A stretch of DNA of 7,268 nucleotides, taken from an uncultured archaeon (GTDB lineage Archaea; Iainarchaeota; Iainarchaeia; Iainarchaeales; 0-14-0-20-30-16). Below, in pieces: positions 3-7,241 of the stretch. Below the pieces are notes generated by a model. That model ran no database searches. It saw only the letters and a list, made by a program, of their open reading frames with translations, and was not told the DNA's origin. Each line of letters opens with the position of its first letter. The first letter of the stretch is position 1. The stretch covers positions 1 to 7,268 of the forward strand of contig CAZMCX010000010.1 in the NCBI GenBank assembly GCA_964565125.1, given 5' to 3'. Position numbers and translations under genes: made by a program.

Positions 3-464
3 GGAAAATCTCTTGCTGTGTATGATACAAGTGGACCTGGATTCCAATGGGAAGCACAAATAGCTGACACCGAAAATATGGACGATTACTTTGCAGTTTA
101 CTATGTTGTATATTGTGAAGAACAAAATATTGCGACTTTGGGGGGCGGACATACAGTCATGCCTATTGCTTGTGGGCTTGGTACTGGAAAGAAAGGCTCT
201 GCAATAACTATGCAGAAACAAAGTCACTTTTCTTGTAGCCAAGAAGCTTACGGCACAATATCGTTGTTTGATGGTTCAGAATCAGATATAATCCGATTGT
301 ATGGTGCATATAAAGATGGCGGATGTTTGAGGACTATTCCAATAAACTCAGTAGAGTCTAAAGTTTATCCTCCACTAGGAAAAATAGTTCAGGGTACAAT
401 TACCGTAACTGGTGGCTTAAATGGATCCCAGGCAGAGATTTTTGTAACTCAAAGCCCATCATAA
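3..464 (+). CDS. C-terminal fragment of a hypothetical protein; the gene continues beyond the left edge
   Basis: The frame is open from base 3 (GKSLA precedes the GTG at 18 that the ORF track used as start), and the stop is TAA at 462-464. The sequence is Gly/Thr/Cys-containing and looks beta-rich (GTITVTGGLNGSQAEIFV). I recognise no family motif. Confidence 0.6.
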   Translation, partial: GKSLAVYDTSGPGFQWEAQIADTENMDDYFAVYYVVYCEEQNIATLGGGHTVMPIACGLGTGKKGSAITMQKQSHFSCSQEAYGTISLFDGSESDIIRLYGAYKDGGCLRTIPINSVESKVYPPLGKIVQGTITVTGGLNGSQAEIFVTQSPS

Positions 465-552
465 ACATTTAACAACCTTTTCCCTTTTTTTGGGAAACTA
501 AGTTTAAAAAAGATACCTTTTTATACACTATGTTACTAATTTTGATAACAAA
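465..552 (+). repeat. 88-bp direct repeat, copy 1 (R88), directly after the stop codon of the upstream gene
   Basis: Hand alignment at an offset of 1515 nt shows 465-552 identical at 88/88 positions to 1980-2067. Identity breaks at 464/1979 and at 553/2068. Confidence 0.95.
479..497 (+). terminator. Hairpin TTTCCC-T7-GGGAAA; the T7 run is an archaeal-style termination signal for the upstream gene
   Basis: A 6-bp inverted repeat (479-484 / 492-497) flanks a run of seven T (485-491), 15 nt after the stop codon. Oligo-T tracts are the known archaeal terminator signal. Confidence 0.35.
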
Positions 553-610
553 ATGCTACAAAAAGGATGCAGTAGAAAAGAAGGGTTTATATTCTTTTGT
601 ATTATAGTTA

Positions 611-634
611 CCATATAACAAATCTGTTATGTGG
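611..634 (+). promoter_or_regulatory. Near-perfect inverted repeat CCATATAACA-AATC-TGTTATGTGG, a candidate AbiEi-1 operator
   Basis: The arms are complementary at 9 of 10 positions, and the repeat ends 11 nt before the abiEi-1 ATG. The TGTTA/TAACA half-site also occurs as an inverted pair inside R88 (531-535 / 546-550). AbiEi antitoxins are known to autorepress through inverted repeats in their promoters. Confidence 0.3.
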
Positions 635-644
635 TTGATATAAT

Positions 645-1232
645 ATGTCTAGGCAGAATTTATATGATATAAAAGAAAAAGCAATTAATTCAAAACAAAA
701 AGTATTTTCTATAAAAGATTTAGCAACCCTTCTAGGAAAATCTACGAATGTGTCTGGAGTTTATTTTAATAGGTTAATAAAACGGGGTTTGGCATATAAA
801 ATAAAAGACGGGCTGTTATGTTTTGTAAATGATGACAAAGTTATTGCAACAAATATAGTACAGCCATCATATATTTCTCTTAATTCTGCTTTGTATTATT
901 ATGGCCTTATTGAACAGATTCCTCAAACTTATGAAGTAGTATCTACTAGACAAGTAAGATACAAAACGCAGTATAAATATTATGTCATAAATTCAAAGTT
1001 GCTGTTCGGATATACTATGGAAAAAGCAGGCGAGTCATATTTTTTTATTGCAGATCCAGAAAAAGCGTTTTTGGATTTAGTTTATTTTTTTGGTTTCTCA
1101 AAAGCTTATTTTGGGGATATAAAGCAAAAACTAAACCTAAAAAAATTAAAGTCTTATTTAAAAATATATAAATCAATTGGCGGATATCGTGCAAAAAGAG
1201 TGCTAAAATTAGGTGATTATCTTGATAAGTAA
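645..1232 (+). CDS. abiEi: AbiEi-family antitoxin / transcriptional regulator (type IV TA), module 1
   Basis: There is an N-terminal wHTH-like segment (FSIKDLATLLGKSTNVSGVYFNRLIKRGL) followed by PSYISLNSALYYYGLIEQIP, a motif I recognise from AbiEi/COG5340-type proteins. An in-frame TGA at 636-638 fixes the ATG at 645 as the first possible start. The 3' end overlaps the downstream DUF1814 gene by 20 nt. Confidence 0.8.
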   Translation: MSRQNLYDIKEKAINSKQKVFSIKDLATLLGKSTNVSGVYFNRLIKRGLAYKIKDGLLCFVNDDKVIATNIVQPSYISLNSALYYYGLIEQIPQTYEVVSTRQVRYKTQYKYYVINSKLLFGYTMEKAGESYFFIADPEKAFLDLVYFFGFSKAYFGDIKQKLNLKKLKSYLKIYKSIGGYRAKRVLKLGDYLDK

Positions 1233-1980
1233 AAAAGAGCTAGAAGAAGTAGCAAAAATAAGTGGATTGAAATTGTGGCAGCAGGAAAAACACTATTTTC
1301 AAACCCTAATTTTGCAAGCTTTGAAGAATAAAAACCTGATTTTTAAAGGTGGAACATACTTGTGGTTTTTTCATGGTTTGAATCGGTTCTCTGAAGATCT
1401 TGACTTCACAACAATGGGCGATGTGGAACTAGATTTACCAAAGCAAATTGTGTCGTTTTTGAAATATTATGGTGTAAAATCAGATTATTTGGTAGTTTCA
1501 AACAAAAAAGATTCATACTCCTTCAGAGTTGGAATCGAAGGTCCATTATATGACGGAAATCCACGAAGCAAATGTTTTGTGTATGCGGATATTAGTAAAA
1601 GAGAGAAAATATTATTGCCCGCAAAGAATTATGATGTTTTTTTTGCATATTATAATTTGCCCGTATCGATTATTACAGGCTGTGCTTTAGAAGAAGTTTT
1701 TGCAGAAAAAATAAGAGCAATAATGACGAGAAATAAGGCAAGGGACCTATATGATTTGTGGTTTTTAATAAAAAAACAAATAACTTGTAATGTTTCTCAA
1801 ATAAATAAAAAACTGTCTTACTGTAAAGAGTCATTTAATTTAGACAAATTCTTTAAAAGTATTGGTAATCATAAAGCGAATTACAAATTAGAATTAAATA
1901 ATCTTATTTTTGGGAACTTCCCTGAATTCGAAGTTGTTGAAAAAGATATAAAAAATTATTTTCAGGAAGTTTGCAAGTGA
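1213..1980 (+). CDS. abiEii: AbiEii/DUF1814 nucleotidyltransferase toxin, module 1
   Basis: The motifs FKGGTYLWF, RFSEDLDFT, AEKIRAIMTR and ARDLYDLWFL match the conserved AbiEii nucleotidyltransferase motifs (GG, ExDxD, AEK, RDLYD). The start is GTG at 1213 (or TTG at 1222), and both overlap the abiEi-1 stop, suggesting translational coupling. Confidence 0.85.
   Translation: MIILISKKELEEVAKISGLKLWQQEKHYFQTLILQALKNKNLIFKGGTYLWFFHGLNRFSEDLDFTTMGDVELDLPKQIVSFLKYYGVKSDYLVVSNKKDSYSFRVGIEGPLYDGNPRSKCFVYADISKREKILLPAKNYDVFFAYYNLPVSIITGCALEEVFAEKIRAIMTRNKARDLYDLWFLIKKQITCNVSQINKKLSYCKESFNLDKFFKSIGNHKANYKLELNNLIFGNFPEFEVVEKDIKNYFQEVCK
1940..1980 (+). repeat. Conserved 3' tail, copy A (the last 13 codons of abiEii-1, EKDIKNYFQEVCK*)
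   Basis: AAAAAGATATAAAAAATTATTT (1940-1961) is identical to 3391-3412. The alignment resumes with CA and AGTGA after a 1-nt and an 11-nt gap in copy B. Confidence 0.8.
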
Positions 1981-2067
1981 CATTTAACAACCTTTTCCCT
2001 TTTTTTGGGAAACTAAGTTTAAAAAAGATACCTTTTTATACACTATGTTACTAATTTTGATAACAAA
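1980..2067 (+). repeat. 88-bp direct repeat, copy 2 (R88), directly after the abiEii-1 stop codon
   Basis: It is identical to 465-552 at 88/88 positions. It ends 9 nt before the abiEi-2 ATG. Confidence 0.95.
1994..2012 (+). terminator. Hairpin TTTCCC-T7-GGGAAA (copy 2), a possible terminator of module 1
   Basis: This is the same element as 479-497 and lies within R88 copy 2. Confidence 0.35.
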
Positions 2068-2076
2068 GTGATGTAA

Positions 2077-2640
2077 ATGAATGAAATAATTGGGAAAATA
2101 AAATCTTCGGGTATGGCGGCATTTAGAACTAAAGAATTTGCTGTATTGCTTGGTAAGAAAGAATATGCAAGGCAAGTTTTGCATAGGCTTAAAGAAAAAA
2201 ATGAATTAATCTCTATAAAAAAAGGGTGGTGGGCGTTTCCTGATGCAATGCCAGAGGCAGTTGCCTGTGAGTTATTTATGCCTTGTTATATTTCATTTCA
2301 TTCTGCATTGTATTTACACGGATTGACTACCCAAATACCTAAAAAAGTTCAACTAGCAGTTACTAAAAACAGCAGGAGTATAAGTGTTTTTGGGGTGCAG
2401 ATAAAAAAATATAAAATAAAACAAAAAGAATTTAATAGCTTTTGTAAAAAAGATAATTTGTTATTGGCATCTAAAGAAAAAGCTTTTGCGGATGCAGTGA
2501 ATTATCCACGATCTTGCCCAGAAATAGTTTTAAAAGAGGCTATTTCCTGTGTTGAATTAAAACAGGTAAGAACCTATCTTAATAGTGAAGAATCAAGAAG
2601 GAGATTTTTGAGGTTGATAAAATATGTTAACAAGAGATGA
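2077..2640 (+). CDS. abiEi: AbiEi-family antitoxin / transcriptional regulator, module 2
   Basis: There is a wHTH-like N-terminus (FRTKEFAVLLGKKEYARQVLHRLKEKNEL) plus PCYISFHSALYLHGLTTQIP. An in-frame TAA at 2074-2076 fixes the ATG at 2077. It overlaps the downstream toxin gene by 17 nt. By eye it is only roughly a quarter to a third identical to AbiEi-1. Confidence 0.8.
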   Translation: MNEIIGKIKSSGMAAFRTKEFAVLLGKKEYARQVLHRLKEKNELISIKKGWWAFPDAMPEAVACELFMPCYISFHSALYLHGLTTQIPKKVQLAVTKNSRSISVFGVQIKKYKIKQKEFNSFCKKDNLLLASKEKAFADAVNYPRSCPEIVLKEAISCVELKQVRTYLNSEESRRRFLRLIKYVNKR

Positions 2641-3370
2641 ATTAAATAGACTTGGCCCCCCTGGCTTCCATTTAGCACAAAAAGAAAAAGATTATGTTCA
2701 ATATTTAATTTTGTCTTATTTATCTCAGTCTGGCTTTGAAGGAATTTTTAAAGGCGGAACTGCTTTGCAGAAAGCTTTTGGCTTACCAAGGTATTCCGAG
2801 GATTTAGATTTTACTCTTAATAATGTGGCGGAGCCAAATATTGATTCTTTAGTATCTTTTTTGGGGTCTTATGGTTTTGGTAATGTATCTTGGGAAAGAA
2901 GTAAAGGAAATGTGTCATCTAATGTTAGATTAAAATATTATGGTCCTTTATACAATAAAACTGAAATAAGTGCGGGCTATATTACTTTTGATTTTAATAA
3001 TCGGGAGCTAATAAGATTAGACCCCGAAATAGTAGTTATAATTCCGCCATATTTTGATATTTTACCTTATAACCTGAGGGTTATGAACAGAGTAGAAATT
3101 GTTGCAGAAAAGATAAGTGCGATATTTACGAGATCTTCTGCAAGAGATTTATTTGATTTGTATTTCTTGCTTCATCAAGGTATAAAAGTAGATTATAATT
3201 TAGTAAATAAGAAGTTAGAATTCTATAAAATAAAATTTTCAGTGGGTGCGTTTTTGAAGAGGATTACAAATTTAGAAAAAATTTGGAAATCAGAAATATC
3301 TGCCCTTACAAATAATTATTTGGAATTTGACTTCGTATTTACTTTTGTAGAAAAAAATATGAAAAAATAA
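2624..3370 (+). CDS. abiEii: AbiEii/DUF1814 nucleotidyltransferase toxin, module 2
   Basis: The motifs FKGGTALQKAF, RYSEDLDFT, AEKISAIFTR and ARDLFDLYFL are the same four motifs as in module 1. Otherwise the protein is diverged, about one third identical by eye. Confidence 0.85.
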   Translation: MLTRDELNRLGPPGFHLAQKEKDYVQYLILSYLSQSGFEGIFKGGTALQKAFGLPRYSEDLDFTLNNVAEPNIDSLVSFLGSYGFGNVSWERSKGNVSSNVRLKYYGPLYNKTEISAGYITFDFNNRELIRLDPEIVVIIPPYFDILPYNLRVMNRVEIVAEKISAIFTRSSARDLFDLYFLLHQGIKVDYNLVNKKLEFYKIKFSVGAFLKRITNLEKIWKSEISALTNNYLEFDFVFTFVEKNMKK

Positions 3371-3371
3371 A

Positions 3372-3382
3372 GGGGTTTTTTT
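3372..3382 (+). terminator. GGGG-T7 tract directly after the abiEii-2 stop
   Basis: A run of seven T (3376-3382) begins 6 nt after the TAA at 3368-3370, which fits an archaeal oligo-T terminator. Confidence 0.35.
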
Positions 3383-3390
3383 GTGTTCAC

Positions 3391-3419
3391 AAAAAGATAT
3401 AAAAAATTATTTCAAGTGA
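3391..3419 (+). repeat. Conserved 3' tail, copy B: a non-coding relic of an abiEii-1-type C-terminus (reads QKDIKNYFK*) that also carries a TATA-like box for the next gene
   Basis: 29 nt align to 1940-1980 with a net 12-nt (in-frame) deletion. It lies 21 nt after the abiEii-2 stop and in a different frame from abiEii-2. GATATAAAA (3396-3404) is centred about 24 nt upstream of the ATG at 3424. Confidence 0.75.
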
Positions 3420-3423
3420 TATT

Positions 3424-4155
3424 ATGAATAAAAAGTTCCACGAAGAAATGTTTGAACAGGAATTCAAATTTAATTCTTATTTGCAAAAATACCTGCAGAA
3501 AAAAGGCTTGGAGTTTGTAAAGCTTCTGAACGAAGGCAGAAGTGCTTGGATTATTGTTGTAAAACCTAAAAAGCAGATAGAGGGCAAATCCTGTTCTGGT
3601 CAGACAAAAGAAAAGCAAAAGATTAAGTCAAAACAAACCAAAACAAATGAAACAGGATCCCATTTTGCACCCACCCCCCTTTTTACAATCAAACTAGAAA
3701 AGAAAAGAAGCACAAGATCAGAAATGGTGGAAAAAGAAACTAAGTATATGAAACTTGCAAACAAAGCAAAGATGGGTCCTAAGTTTGTAGACTCTAATAT
3801 AAAAGGCAGGTTTATTGTTTATGAATATTTTGATGCTATTCCCCTGATAAATTATTTGGATAAATTTGATAAAACAGAATTTATTGATTTCTTGGGGATA
3901 TTATTTGCACAAGGAAAAAAACTAGATGAACTTGGGTTGGATCATGGCCAGCTTGTGGGAAAAGGAACCAATATTATGGTTCTAAAAAATGGAAAACCGA
4001 TAATTGTAGATTTTGAAAAGTCGTCTAATAATAGAAAAACACATAATGTGAATGTACTTATTTCATACTTTTTCTCTGAGAAATCAAAAGTTGCAGGCAA
4101 AGTAAAAAAAATATTGGGAAAAGATTTTGAAGAAATAAAAAAAGAATTTTTATAA
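3424..4155 (+). CDS. Bud32/RIO-like atypical protein-kinase-fold protein, possibly catalytically degenerate
   Basis: The order of elements matches Bud32/RIO mini-kinases. These are a Gly-loop-like LLNEGRSAWIIVV, a beta3 Lys candidate in FTIKLEK, a hinge-like RFIVYEYFDAIPL, a catalytic-loop-like GLDHGQLVGKGTNIMV (canonical HGDLxxxN) and a metal-binding IIVDFEKS (canonical IDFG/IDFxQ). A Lys/Gln/Thr-rich insertion (about residues 47-85) lies between the first two elements. Confidence 0.55.
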   Translation: MNKKFHEEMFEQEFKFNSYLQKYLQKKGLEFVKLLNEGRSAWIIVVKPKKQIEGKSCSGQTKEKQKIKSKQTKTNETGSHFAPTPLFTIKLEKKRSTRSEMVEKETKYMKLANKAKMGPKFVDSNIKGRFIVYEYFDAIPLINYLDKFDKTEFIDFLGILFAQGKKLDELGLDHGQLVGKGTNIMVLKNGKPIIVDFEKSSNNRKTHNVNVLISYFFSEKSKVAGKVKKILGKDFEEIKKEFL

Positions 4156-4542
4156 AAGTAGAATTAATTCTTTCGTATTAAAAACTAAGATCTGTTTTTG
4201 ATTTTTGAATTCAGAATCATTTGACCATATGGGGAGATTAAACTCTAAAGCCATTGCAAAATATATTATGTCTTTTTCATCATTAATTATGTTCTTTGCT
4301 TCCTTTAAACTATCTTTATATTCTGAAATTGGCAAAAATTTTACTTTTTCTTTTAGCTGGGTAATATAATTTTTAAAATTAATGTTAAATTTTTCCTCTA
4401 TGAGAGAAGAATATTTATTTAGCTCTTTTAAAGCATAATCTGGGGCAATTAATTCTAAATCTTTTTCTTTGATAAGTTTATTAGTCACAGAATCTTTTTT
4501 TGCAATAGAGAAAAGGATATTAGCATCTGCAATGAGTTTCAT
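4150..4542 (-). CDS. vapC: PIN-domain ribonuclease toxin (VapC-like)
   Basis: The N-terminal LIADANIL motif is present, and an acidic quartet sits at PIN-typical spacing (D6, E40, D91, D109; NDEKDIIYFAMA...WSNDSEF). There is a 4-nt ATGA overlap with the upstream antitoxin gene. Confidence 0.75.
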   Translation of the reverse strand: MKLIADANILFSIAKKDSVTNKLIKEKDLELIAPDYALKELNKYSSLIEEKFNINFKNYITQLKEKVKFLPISEYKDSLKEAKNIINDEKDIIYFAMALEFNLPIWSNDSEFKNQKQILVFNTKELILLL

Positions 4543-4790
4543 ATTAGCCCATCCTTTTTTAACTTATTAGCAACACCTTTGTTTAATTTTCGTCCTAATT
4601 CAATAGAGTCTTTTTCTAATTGGCTCTCTTCTTTGATCTTTTTGAGCATTTCTTCTTTCCAAGCAAGTTCTTTGGTTTTTTCTATTATTGCTTTTTTTAC
4701 AAATCCGGACCAGTTTATCTCTGAAAAAGTGTCCATCTGGTCTTTTACTTCTTGTGGAATAGATAGAGTTATCGCAGGCATAATAATCAC
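4539..4790 (-). CDS. vapB: RHH/CopG-like antitoxin (VapB-like)
   Basis: The N-terminal beta-strand plus helix pattern ITLSIPQEVKDQMD...NWSGFVKKAI is typical of ribbon-helix-helix antitoxins, and the C-terminal half is charged. It is 83 aa and is positioned immediately upstream of, and overlapping, the PIN gene. An alternative start lies at 4781. Confidence 0.65.
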   Translation of the reverse strand: MIIMPAITLSIPQEVKDQMDTFSEINWSGFVKKAIIEKTKELAWKEEMLKKIKEESQLEKDSIELGRKLNKGVANKLKKDGLI

Positions 4791-4843: not shown

Positions 4844-5341
4844 TTATAGTTCTTTTCTTGAGATTTCTTGGAATACAACTTCTAGATCGTCGCCCACAAT
4901 AGCAAGTAACAAAGTTGTTTTTAGGCCCAGAGACATTCTTACTGCTTTTGTTAATTCAGTTGTATTTATTTTTTGTTTTTCTTTTACTGCCCACACAACA
5001 TATTTTGAGTGGCTTTTGTCTGGACTTTTTCCTTTCGGATAAACTCTGAAATCAAAACCGAATTTTAAGCCGGTTTTTACAACATAGCCTAAAGATCGCA
5101 AATTTTTGAATACTGCAAAATTGTCTAGGATCTCTTTTTTTGATTTTTTTATAATGCTTTCAAAAGTTTCTTTTTTTGATAGTTTAAGAGTCCCGCGTTC
5201 TAAGAAATAAAGAGTTTCATAAATATCTAAAAAGAATGAATTCCCTGTCTTTTCTCCGTAATACTTGCTGATAAGCCAAGATTTGGAGTCATTTTCCGAG
5301 ATTATTGTTTTGTTATTTACAAAAGTTCCCTTTAAATTCAT
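4844..5341 (-). CDS. endA: tRNA-splicing endonuclease (EndA), catalytic-type subunit
   Basis: The C-terminal domain motif is LRSLGYVVKTGLKFGFDFRVYPKG...SHSKYVVWAV...GLKTTLLLAIV. The candidate catalytic triad is Y101/H111/K141, with spacing of 10 and 30 residues that closely matches the M. jannaschii enzyme (Y115/H125/K156). Confidence 0.85.
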   Translation of the reverse strand: MNLKGTFVNNKTIISENDSKSWLISKYYGEKTGNSFFLDIYETLYFLERGTLKLSKKETFESIIKKSKKEILDNFAVFKNLRSLGYVVKTGLKFGFDFRVYPKGKSPDKSHSKYVVWAVKEKQKINTTELTKAVRMSLGLKTTLLLAIVGDDLEVVFQEISRKEL

Positions 5342-6020: not shown

Positions 6021-7241
6021 CTATTGTAATTTTTTAATAATTTCTTCGGTAACTGTGGTTGCATAATTTCCTTTGTCTAGAATGAAAGAGATCTTTAGGG
6101 CCTGGCAGTTTTCATTGAATTCGTCTGTGGAAATTTCTAAAACTTTGAAATCTTCTACTTCAAGTTTAATCTTTCTTCTTGTCCCTTCTACAGACATCAT
6201 AGGGAAATTTGCTATTTTAAATGTGGGTAGGGAAAACTGCTCTTGATCTAAAATGCTTTTTTCTAAATCTTCTATTTTGTCTTTTGCAAATTCTGTGCTG
6301 TGGCCATATAAAGGCCCTAAAACAAAACCTTCAGAATCTAAAATATCGCCTTTTTGTGGCTCTAAAGGATTTTTGAATTCTTGAACTCTTTTTTCTAAAT
6401 ATAGATTAAATAAATAAGATTGATATGCGTGTACAAAAAGATATGCAAGAGTTTTTGGGATTTGGTTCCAGGCATTATTGTAATCATTTGGATTTTTTAT
6501 TAGAGCGTTTAGAATTGCTTTTTCATACTTGTTTTCTTTTGGAAAAATTCTTATTGCGTCTTTGAAGTTTCCTTGTTTTGCTAACTCTCTTGCTTTAATT
6601 GTATTTTCCGGCTCATTTCCTGAAATTCCAGTTAAAAATAATTCAACTGCTTCTTTTGTTTTGCCTTCAAAAAATAATTTTCCAATAAGGTGGTTTGAAC
6701 TTCTTATTGAACCGAATCTTTGTTCTCCAAAAGAATTTGGAATTCCTTTTGTAATGTCTTTTTTTATTTGTAATGTTATTTTTTTCAAATCTTTTTTTTC
6801 ATCTATTCCTCTAATTATAATTTCAAAATAATTTTTGTCTAAGTCTCCTAATTCAAGTTTCTTGTCGGACCATTCAAAAGAATGTAAAAGTATATTTCTA
6901 TCTTTGAATTGTTTTAATCTATCTAGGTCTGGGTCAAATATGGTGATAAATTGGGAAGTTACTGCTCTTTTGTCTTTTGTTCCGGCAAACCCCAATCTTT
7001 TAATGCTAAAGCCTTGTTTATTAGAAATTGATTTTAGTGCAAATTGCATTTCTGTAATTCTTTTTTGCATAACACATTTTAGTTGCTCTTTACGTTCTCC
7101 TTGTAATTCATCTAACTCTTTCTCGATTTTTTGCCCATAATCTTCAAGACTTATAGAAAATTCTTTTATCCCCGCTTTTTTTCCATTAGAAATTTCTTGA
7201 ACCTTAAAATCTTCGTATCTTTGTTTTATTCTAGGAACCAT
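6021..7241 (-). CDS. truD: tRNA pseudouridine synthase D (TruD/Pus7 family)
   Basis: The N-terminal YEDFKVQEI motif is present, along with the catalytic-Asp motif GFAGTKDKRAVTSQ and the PNSFGEQRFG motif. All are TruD family hallmarks, and the 406-aa length is typical of archaeal TruD. Confidence 0.9.
   Translation of the reverse strand: MVPRIKQRYEDFKVQEISNGKKAGIKEFSISLEDYGQKIEKELDELQGERKEQLKCVMQKRITEMQFALKSISNKQGFSIKRLGFAGTKDKRAVTSQFITIFDPDLDRLKQFKDRNILLHSFEWSDKKLELGDLDKNYFEIIIRGIDEKKDLKKITLQIKKDITKGIPNSFGEQRFGSIRSSNHLIGKLFFEGKTKEAVELFLTGISGNEPENTIKARELAKQGNFKDAIRIFPKENKYEKAILNALIKNPNDYNNAWNQIPKTLAYLFVHAYQSYLFNLYLEKRVQEFKNPLEPQKGDILDSEGFVLGPLYGHSTEFAKDKIEDLEKSILDQEQFSLPTFKIANFPMMSVEGTRRKIKLEVEDFKVLEISTDEFNENCQALKISFILDKGNYATTVTEEIIKKLQ

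Follow-up and report, generated by a model that had tools for sequence, protein, structure and literature searches.

Two diverged AbiE modules in tandem at a probable insertion hotspot upstream of a Bud32-like kinase gene in a Diapherotrites archaeon

Integron gene cassettes, including the toxin-antitoxin (TA) cassettes of chromosomal superintegrons, are serial, promoter-proximal units with repeats at their boundaries and a variable unit number, and direct repeats allow the copy number of tandem arrays to change by unequal crossing-over or excision. AbiE, a type IV TA system described in S. agalactiae and Lactococcus (PMC3985639), comprises bicistronic, overlapping open reading frames (ORFs) with AbiEi upstream of a DUF1814/PF08843 nucleotidyltransferase, AbiEii; for S. 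agalactiae AbiE, autoregulation by AbiEi at inverted repeats, situated between promoter element and start codon, is established (Dy et al. 2014, PMC3985639). AbiE has been reported to be enriched in DPANN archaea (PMC12988326), and antiviral-system hotspots in phages and satellites (Rousset et al. 2022) are cited in the same paper. Here we analyse a 7,268-nucleotide (nt) stretch of DNA from an uncultured archaeon (GenBank assembly GCA_964565125.1, contig CAZMCX010000010.1; hereafter the window) that carries two AbiE pairs in tandem, unit A (645-1232 and 1213-1980) and unit B (2077-2640 and 2624-3370), each preceded by the same 88-nt repeat (the head) and accompanied at its 3' side by a shorter repeat (the tail). 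On balance, we read the locus as an AbiE insertion hotspot between the promoter and the start codon of a conserved Bud32-like kinase gene, at which copy number changes by repeat-mediated recombination.

The locus shares features with each of these systems. Like AbiE of S. agalactiae and Lactococcus, both units are bicistronic with AbiEi first and overlapping ORFs (20 nt in unit A, 17 nt in unit B), both AbiEi proteins are expected from family membership to carry a winged helix-turn-helix (wHTH) at the N-terminus, and a candidate inverted-repeat operator lies between promoter element and start codon. Unlike them, the locus is archaeal, with putative TATA-box promoters, and two clades with distinct palindromes stand in tandem, one promoter being apparently duplicated upstream of the other operon. 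Conserved flanks with empty, single or double occupancy recall the phage and satellite hotspots as far as these are outlined in PMC12988326, and a further TA pair (PIN/VapB-like) inserted 0.7 kb away recalls defence and TA hotspots so described; unlike the phage and satellite hotspots of that outline, this is a chromosomal DPANN locus with no mobile-element genes nearby, insertion has occurred between promoter and start codon, and the modules form a tandem array by way of a duplicated promoter segment. Serial units, a repeated boundary sequence and variable unit number resemble integron cassettes, but the array has no integrase, attI or attC, and its repeated ends are not shared with other cargo in the collections searched (GTDB representatives, IMG/VR and JGI metagenomes). 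Finally, 88-nt repeats bracketing unit A, junctions of deletion and of amplification or circle formation, and gene-conversion mosaics are as in direct-repeat copy-number variation; unlike in ordinary tandem arrays, the cargo is non-homologous, so only heads (88 nt) and tails (22 + 7 nt) can pair. AbiE modules are a known kind, as is the repeat-mediated change of copy number at a TA hotspot. The features of the array and its borders are as follows.

18-464, plus strand: 3' part of the upstream gene, which bounds the hotspot on the left (324 aa in contig L002, no known family)
465-491, plus strand: opening 27 nt of head copy 1 (c27), intergenic DNA of ancestral origin with TATA-like TTTAACAA and a T7 run, conserved in L026 and L029
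492-552, plus strand: head copy 1, last 61 nt, putative duplicated B-type promoter/operator without B genes, identical to 2007-2067
553-644, plus strand: unit A leader, with TATA-like TTTATATT (587-594), palindrome ATAACA-AATC-TGTTAT (616-631) and GGTTGAT resembling a Shine-Dalgarno (SD) motif
645-1232, plus strand: AbiEi-A antitoxin/repressor, 195 aa (PADLOC AbiEi, E 5e-25)
1213-1980, plus strand: AbiEii-A nucleotidyltransferase toxin, 255 aa (PF08843, E 8e-25; PADLOC AbiEii, E 8e-64)
1940-1980, plus strand: complete tail copy (41 nt), toxin A's final 13 codons, ...EKDIKNYFQEVCK and stop
1980-2067, plus strand: head copy 2, c27 (1980-2006) and the predicted working B promoter/operator (TATA 2033-2040, palindrome 2046-2065)
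2077-2640, plus strand: AbiEi-B antitoxin/repressor, 187 aa (PADLOC AbiEi, E 7e-24)
2624-3370, plus strand: AbiEii-B toxin, 248 aa (PF08843, E 5e-27; PADLOC AbiEii, E 4e-58)
3371-3390, plus strand: B-borne downstream segment AGGGGTTTTTTTGTGTTCAC with a T7 run, without counterpart in unit A or the empty site
3391-3419, plus strand: tail remnant (29 nt), reading KDIKNYFK and stop, with 22/22 and 7/7 identity to the full copy
3424-4155, plus strand: small Bud32-like kinase gene of the host, conserved, which bounds the hotspot on the right

Comparison with related contigs reveals that the site is variably occupied. The population is represented by ~25 contigs from many samples (contigs compared here, those of relatives included, are labelled L0xx), and the window proteins have identical copies on contigs of many ENA, JGI, Logan and NCBI assemblies, including GCA_002778895.1 (Candidatus Diapherotrites archaeon). 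In Ca. Iainarchaeum sp. STB_43 (L026), whose TruD and EndA are 87% and 90% identical to those of the window, the same flanking genes are present with no AbiE module between them. At this empty site the upstream gene is followed by ...ATAAACCTTTAACAACCTTTTCCCTTTTTTT and directly by the kinase start, ATATTATG (junction ...ACCTTTAACAACCTTTTCCCTTTTTTT/ATATTATG). Because c27 abuts the kinase start there, we identify it as ancestral intergenic DNA; its conservation extends to L029, from a third species that is more distant. Compared with the empty site, positions 492-3418 of the window are inserted. The TATA-like element of c27 lies 29 nt upstream of the kinase ATG at the empty site, and c27 is, to judge by spacing, probably the original leaderless kinase-gene promoter together with an oligo-T terminator.

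The flanking genes are recognisable across the species compared. In particular, kinase orthologues at syntenic positions are 77% (L026) and 58% (L029) identical, and the syntenic L026 site encodes a 1294-aa protein whose end shares 40% identity with the C-terminus of the upstream gene product. The kinase itself matches the NCBIfam Bud32 model weakly (E 9e-5, far below the curated cut-off). In a more distant relative (L028/29, L033-36), a single A-type module occupies the same site, and its toxin stop codon directly adjoins the ATG of the kinase. Its AbiEi (78%; L029/L033) and AbiEii (71%) are about as similar to those of unit A as its TruD (73%) and EndA (75%) are to those of the window, and the L029 module has no counterpart of the last 61 nt of the head. 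The same flanking genes thus enclose different cargo or none, both among relatives and within the population.

Within the population, junctions were counted by a blastn-short landmark search of contigs combined with direct inspection. The junction of upstream gene, head and unit A is found in 9 sequences (window and 8 contigs), and that of toxin A, head and unit B in 11 (window and 10 contigs). A junction of upstream gene, head and unit B, with unit A absent, is found in two contigs: L011, which takes in 423 nt of upstream-gene sequence and continues as far as the kinase, and L025, which covers only 9 nt of the upstream gene. L017 and L019, which carry A, have the same upstream-gene haplotype as L011, and a single genetic background thus segregates for having or lacking A. 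In L005, toxin A is joined to a head followed by an A leader, and in L008 to a head with variants otherwise confined to the copy upstream of A (copy-1 type). The junctions of the B-only and the toxin A-head-A forms co-occur in the same two samples, ERZ27293393 and ERZ27293411, which is what reciprocal head-by-head products would look like (deletion plus circle, or B-only plus A-A-B).

The two heads (465-552 and 1980-2067, spacing 1515 nt) are identical at 88/88 positions, and their similarity dies away within the next 10 nt. In a comparison of the 200 nt upstream with the 200 nt downstream of each module against dinucleotide shuffles, the head and tail repeats were both significant (p<0.001). 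The perfect identity of the heads is a feature of this strain, as the copies differ at 1-4 positions in most other contigs; heads before B are nearly invariant among strains, and heads before A are variable. Single-base head variants form mosaics, and identical pairs of different types occur (CCC type in the window, CTC type in L018), which together indicate that the heads are homogenised by gene conversion in both directions.

The head is a composite of c27, ~17 further nt, and ~45 nt of predicted B-type promoter/operator. B-type AbiE leaders in unrelated, GC-richer genomes (L037, beside gatD; L039, beside an NFACT gene) read TTTATATG-TATTTGTTATCAATTATGATAACAAAGTGAGATAAATG and TTTTTATATG-TTTTGTTATCATAATTGATAACAAAGTGATGCTAATG, and align with the 3' ~45 nt of the head plus the B leader (TTTTTATACACTATGTTACTAATTTTGATAACAAAGTGATGTAAATG) at p<1/2000, the common motif being TATA-TTGTTAYCA..TGATAACAAAGTGA-ATG. 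Because these unrelated leaders match, the 3' part of the head is taken to be the native TATA box and operator of a B-type operon. Consistent with this, head copy 2 runs straight into the SD motif GTGATG (2068-2073) and the ATG (2077) of unit B. Head copy 1 carries a TATA box (518-525) and a palindrome (TGTTAC-N9-GATAACA, 531-550) upstream of unit A. Since the 3' part of the head is native to B and unit A has its own promoter/operator, the head upstream of A appears to be a duplicated B promoter.

Several further observations concern the head. Before A, TTTTACACAC replaces TTTTTATACAC (518-525) in 5/12 contigs (L002 at 1218-1304, L003, L005, L008 and L017); this variant destroys the B-type TATA box and is never found in the head copy before B. 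An inverted repeat, TTTCCC-T7-GGGAAA (481-497 and 1996-2012), crosses the junction between c27 and the imported B segment and is present in occupied sites only. No bacterial-type terminator was found for the head; the T7 run by itself could serve as an archaeal terminator for the preceding gene. A structured RNA was considered and rejected, the folding z being only -2.0 with no Rfam match in the window. Sigma-70-like sites were below shuffle expectation in a scan that does not cover archaeal promoters. A reading of the 61-nt segment as the remnant of an A-type leader was also rejected: its similarity to the L029 leader is marginal (p=0.015), it has none to the window A or A' leaders (A' is described below), and the strong match to B-type leaders overrides it.

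The tail has a different origin, in the coding sequence of toxin A. Its full copy encodes the C-terminus of AbiEii-A, and the A-clade relative P0002 ends in ...EKEIINYFKGEE, supporting an A-clade tail. Positions 1940-1961 and 3391-3412 are identical (22/22), and both copies then end in CAAGTGA (1974-1980 and 3413-3419); the copy after B lacks the 12 nt TCAGGAAGTTTG found before CAAGTGA in the first copy. It starts 20 nt past the toxin B stop codon and adjoins the kinase start, is absent from the L026 empty site, and is present in all contigs that join B to the kinase. The original prediction that both units end in a shared tail stands, with the refinement that the copy after B is not part of toxin B. 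Toxin B has a C-terminus of its own, FVEKNMKK, homologous to the tail region and followed by its own stop codon and a T7 run. Because the second tail copy lies past that stop and toxin B has its own homologous C-terminus, this copy is a remnant, the surviving 3' piece of an A-type toxin gene that was apparently displaced.

The remnant offers an SD-like GTGAT and, after the 12-nt deletion, a TATA-like ATATAAAA that precedes the kinase ATG by 27 nt, a spacing that matches that of the c27 element at the empty site (29 nt). The 29 nt may accordingly have been retained as translation and transcription signals for the kinase. The segment between toxin B and the remnant (3371-3390) is the right end of the imported B segment and probably a terminator. 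The B leader AGTGATGTAAATGAAT and the kinase sequence AGTGATATTATGAAT were compared as a possible target duplication and dismissed (p=0.29), because the shared GTGAT is an SD motif found upstream of most ORFs here.

Units A and B belong to the same families and to different clades. Both toxins match PF08843 above the gathering score, and both carry the nucleotidyltransferase motifs KGGT and SEDLDF in alignment, of the Pol-beta type G-G/S ... D-x-D; both antitoxins are identified by the PADLOC AbiEi model, no Pfam model passing its cut-off for them. Identity between A and B is 36% for the toxins and 27% for the antitoxins, and DNA similarity of the interiors is limited to one 78-nt stretch (74%) over a conserved toxin motif. 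The toxins fall in separate clades, as 120/120 best matches of each query are nearer to that query than to the other toxin. AbiEii-A has weak matches to the DUF1814-type PDB chains 4o8s and 4ok0. The nearest relatives of AbiEii-B, in Micrarchaeota/Diapherotrites metagenome-assembled genomes, are at most 59% identical; the L037 and L039 toxins are 57-58% identical to toxin B, and their AbiEi partners 50-54% identical to AbiEi-B, with the wHTH conserved. No relatives of either toxin were found on IMG/VR viral contigs. The original prediction, made from the sequence alone, had proposed an identical 88-bp element at the start of two AbiEi/AbiEii pairs with no obvious DNA identity, and was borne out on these points; it had also suggested testing whether the toxins come from different clades, which they do.

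Each operon also has a distinct candidate regulatory site. The unit A leader is homologous to the L029 leader, and the A-clade palindrome type recurs in L005 (as A'), L029, L030 and L040. The clade-specific palindromes sit between TATA box and SD motif, show conservation among relatives, and in A' vary jointly with the wHTH; candidate operator sites are TGTTACTAATTTTGATAACA, in the head, for AbiEi-B, and ATAACAAATCTGTTAT and GTAACAAAATTGTTAC for AbiEi-A and A'. We infer that the AbiEi of each operon represses that operon by acting at the palindrome typical of its clade, and the two operons would act as independent TA or abortive-infection modules. By analogy with a 35-nt duplication in L029 (below), positions 553-600 of the unit A leader were compared with the kinase 5' end, of which they might be a decayed copy, and with the B leader; local alignment gave p ~0.9 for both, and both origins were rejected.

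Allele A' (L005 1-240 versus window 535-779; protein P0248) is 100% identical to A from window position 772 on. Its operator palindrome reads GTAACA-AAAT-TGTTAC, versus ATAACA-AATC-TGTTAT in A, and its AbiEi differs at 15 of the first 38 residues (the wHTH helices), which looks like a joint swap of DNA-binding domain and putative operator. In L005, the A' unit is followed by a head and the ordinary A leader. Such a swap, if upheld, bears on how tandem paralogues avoid cross-regulation.

These observations can be ordered into a history. An A-type module would have been the first occupant of the site. A B-type module (segment 492-3390, with its own promoter and T-run terminator) would then have displaced it by illegitimate recombination, sparing its last 29 nt, and an A-type module would have re-entered between the B operator and the B SD motif, duplicating 88 nt (c27 plus the B promoter). 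As unit A is now bracketed by two heads as direct repeats, homologous recombination between them, by unequal crossing-over or by excision and integration, would delete or amplify unit A, and intermittent gene conversion between heads would produce the perfect identity seen in the window. Any path from A-only and B-only states to the array needs two novel junctions, J1 (552/553, joining B operator to A upstream sequence) and J2 (1979/80, joining the toxin A stop codon to c27).

Several points weigh against this reading of the locus as a hotspot with repeat-mediated copy-number change. Among the contigs examined from this population, none has the kinase immediately after unit A. L005, which joins variant A' to A, could in part be a strain-mixing path in the assembly graph, and its toxin A-head-A junction alone fits a circle and a tandem A-A alike. 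The order of events rests on parsimony (four novel junctions versus at least five for the alternatives considered). Microhomology at J1 and J2 is at most 1 nt, and both fall exactly at gene or signal boundaries, a precision unexpected for random illegitimate events unless these are filtered by selection. Finally, the roles of promoter, terminator, SD motif and operator are assigned by their sequences.

The strongest alternative, which we nevertheless consider unlikely, is that the AbiE modules of this archaeal clade are small non-autonomous mobile cassettes, inserted perhaps by way of a circle, and that head and tail repeats are footprints of long, variable target duplications rather than by-products of single illegitimate events. 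In its favour, 4/4 A-clade loci examined are flanked by direct repeats of local target sequence (p<0.001 each), as follows.

Window: 88 nt (the head)
L029 533-567 and 1968-2002, also in L033-36: 35 nt, 34/35 identical, duplicating the kinase 5' end including the ATG
L030 7292-7307 and 8779-8794, also in L031: 16 nt, perfect, spacing 1487 nt
L040 2263-2312 and 3768-3817, also in L042: ~45-50 nt, 82-90% identity, spacing 1505 nt, taking in the end of the upstream gene

The modules of L030/31 and L040/42 lie in unrelated genomic contexts, and the repeat spacings of the four loci are alike (1435-1515 nt). Unit B in the window is flanked as well, by the tail repeat, junctions meet stop codons within 1 nt, and the toxin A-head-A junction fits a 1515-nt circle in the same two samples as the B-only junction. 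Against a mobile cassette, neither a recombinase nor a transposase was found, nor were there terminal inverted repeats or shared ends to the cargo; the repeats vary in length from 16 to 88 nt, in contrast to target duplications set by an enzyme; flanking repeats are lacking (p>0.4) at L037/38 and L039, the B-clade loci outside the window; close relatives are absent from IMG/VR viral contigs; and the sample is four loci only. Moreover, selection against the deletion of gene starts and promoters would enrich duplications among random illegitimate insertions, and the A-clade repeats can be read as random illegitimate insertions that selection keeps when they duplicate, rather than delete, gene starts or promoters. 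That they reflect an undescribed insertion route is doubtful in our estimate. We are similarly sceptical of the wider proposal that DPANN A-clade AbiE operons move as ~1.4-1.5-kb non-autonomous units beside host promoters and gene starts, with variable target duplications and with circle excision and re-integration through the repeats; were it true, it would be a so far undescribed route of mobility for TA and defence modules without a dedicated recombinase, and target-derived repeats flanking A-clade modules, if upheld, bear on TA mobility. The left repeat copy of L029 would encode an 11-codon ORF downstream of a c27-like promoter.

A second alternative, which we regard as improbable, is that a single A-type unit was tandemly duplicated and the interior of the second copy then replaced by a B pair, with head and tail as the A-type frame. 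Both units are flanked by the tail, whose sequence codes for an A-type toxin end, the junction of toxin A to head is the product expected from duplicating 465-1980, and an A-type module is resident at this site in a relative. However, the 3' part of the head resembles a B-type promoter/operator and reaches the SD motif and ATG of B as in B-type operons elsewhere; the A-type module of L029 has no 61-nt segment, and the head resembles the L029 leader only marginally, as given above. The head cannot be an A-type frame for B, because unit A has a complete A-type promoter/operator of its own downstream of it.

Highly improbable is an integron-like or site-specific cassette system in which head and tail are sites for a recombinase encoded elsewhere. 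Precise unit boundaries, polymorphism of unit A exactly at the heads, and the inverted repeat TTTCCC-T7-GGGAAA within the head (z=-2.0) are compatible with such sites. However, a head 23-mer was found in 0 GTDB representative genomes and 0 IMG/VR contigs and, among JGI metagenomes, only in the organism's own contig, in a scan that was incomplete, as it did not return the head-bearing JGI contigs L017-L019. No recombinase gene lies in or beside the array among the ORFs of the window, L002 and L003, no IntI is adjacent among the same ORFs, and no integrase is present within the 7.3-kb window or the 7.3-kb L002 contig. The ends are host flank, putative B promoter and toxin coding sequence, neither head nor tail is attC-like, and the head 23-mer accompanies no unrelated cargo in GTDB representatives, IMG/VR or JGI metagenomes. 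Head copy 1 decays in many strains, and homologous recombination between the 88-nt repeats fully explains the polymorphism. Nor do the units resemble a transposon, insertion sequence or miniature inverted-repeat element, since neither the A nor the B segment has terminal inverted repeats and the flanking repeats range from 16 to 88 nt.

The cassette-exchange interpretation of the original prediction accordingly survives in part. A hotspot that accepts alternative AbiE content is seen in the empty L026 site, the single A-type modules of L028/29 and L033-36, and the A-B, B-only and toxin A-head-A forms of the population; exchange and gene conversion of the ends also hold, the latter from mosaic heads homogenised both ways in the window and L018. 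Its dedicated, reusable cassette ends do not hold, the head being host DNA plus a probable B promoter and the tail toxin A coding sequence, and its expectation of heads with other cargo elsewhere failed in the 23-mer search. Collapse or chimerism of the repeat, which it had named as a possible flaw, is very unlikely as the source of the array, and we give it practically no weight: the head does hold the start or end of many contigs and the source metagenome contains strain mixtures, but independent assemblies from ENA, NCBI, JGI and Logan yield the same A-B order, with the toxin A-head-B junction spanned by at least seven independently assembled contigs (e.g., L002, L003, L004 [from GCA_002778895.1], L010, L015, L018 and L024), the 88-nt repeat is shorter than the assembly k-mer (141) and typical read length, and in most strains the two heads differ in the variants they bear.

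Under the hotspot reading, the locus is a resolved natural example of module gain, loss and shuffling in small-genome DPANN symbionts, with empty site, single module, replaced module and two-module array all recovered, and an 88-nt duplicated promoter would be the driver of presence/absence polymorphism within one groundwater population. It also illustrates a pitfall, in that identical ends around diverged cargo can come from the duplication of a promoter together with a remnant of coding sequence, and no cassette machinery need be involved.

Downstream of the kinase gene, the window contains the following features.

4150-4542, minus strand: PIN-domain toxin (PF10130, E 2e-18)
4539-4790, minus strand: ribbon-helix-helix/VapB-like antitoxin (VapB-family match below cut-off)
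4844-5341, minus strand: tRNA-intron endonuclease (endA)
6021-7241, minus strand: TruD

The tRNA-intron endonuclease, TruD and the weakly Bud32-like kinase mark the setting as archaeal, and the host is a Diapherotrites/Iainarchaeota (DPANN) archaeon. The PIN/VapB-like pair is a separate, third TA insertion outside the AbiE array. It is absent in L026 and L028/L033, in which the kinase and endA stop codons abut or overlap. The insertion measures ~690 nt between the convergent stop codons, and TTTATA(A/G) is repeated at both of its borders.

Two minor observations concern the left side of the site. In L026, a 9-nt direct repeat, CGTCATAAA, surrounds ~52 nt of extra sequence just past the upstream gene stop codon (7901-7969), and may be a scar left when other sequence was inserted or deleted at this hotspot. 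In the upstream gene, ~16 clustered substitutions at 340-398 split the haplotype of the window and L010 from that of most contigs, the rest of the region being ~99% identical, which points to a patch that has recombined or is diversifying within what is probably a surface protein.

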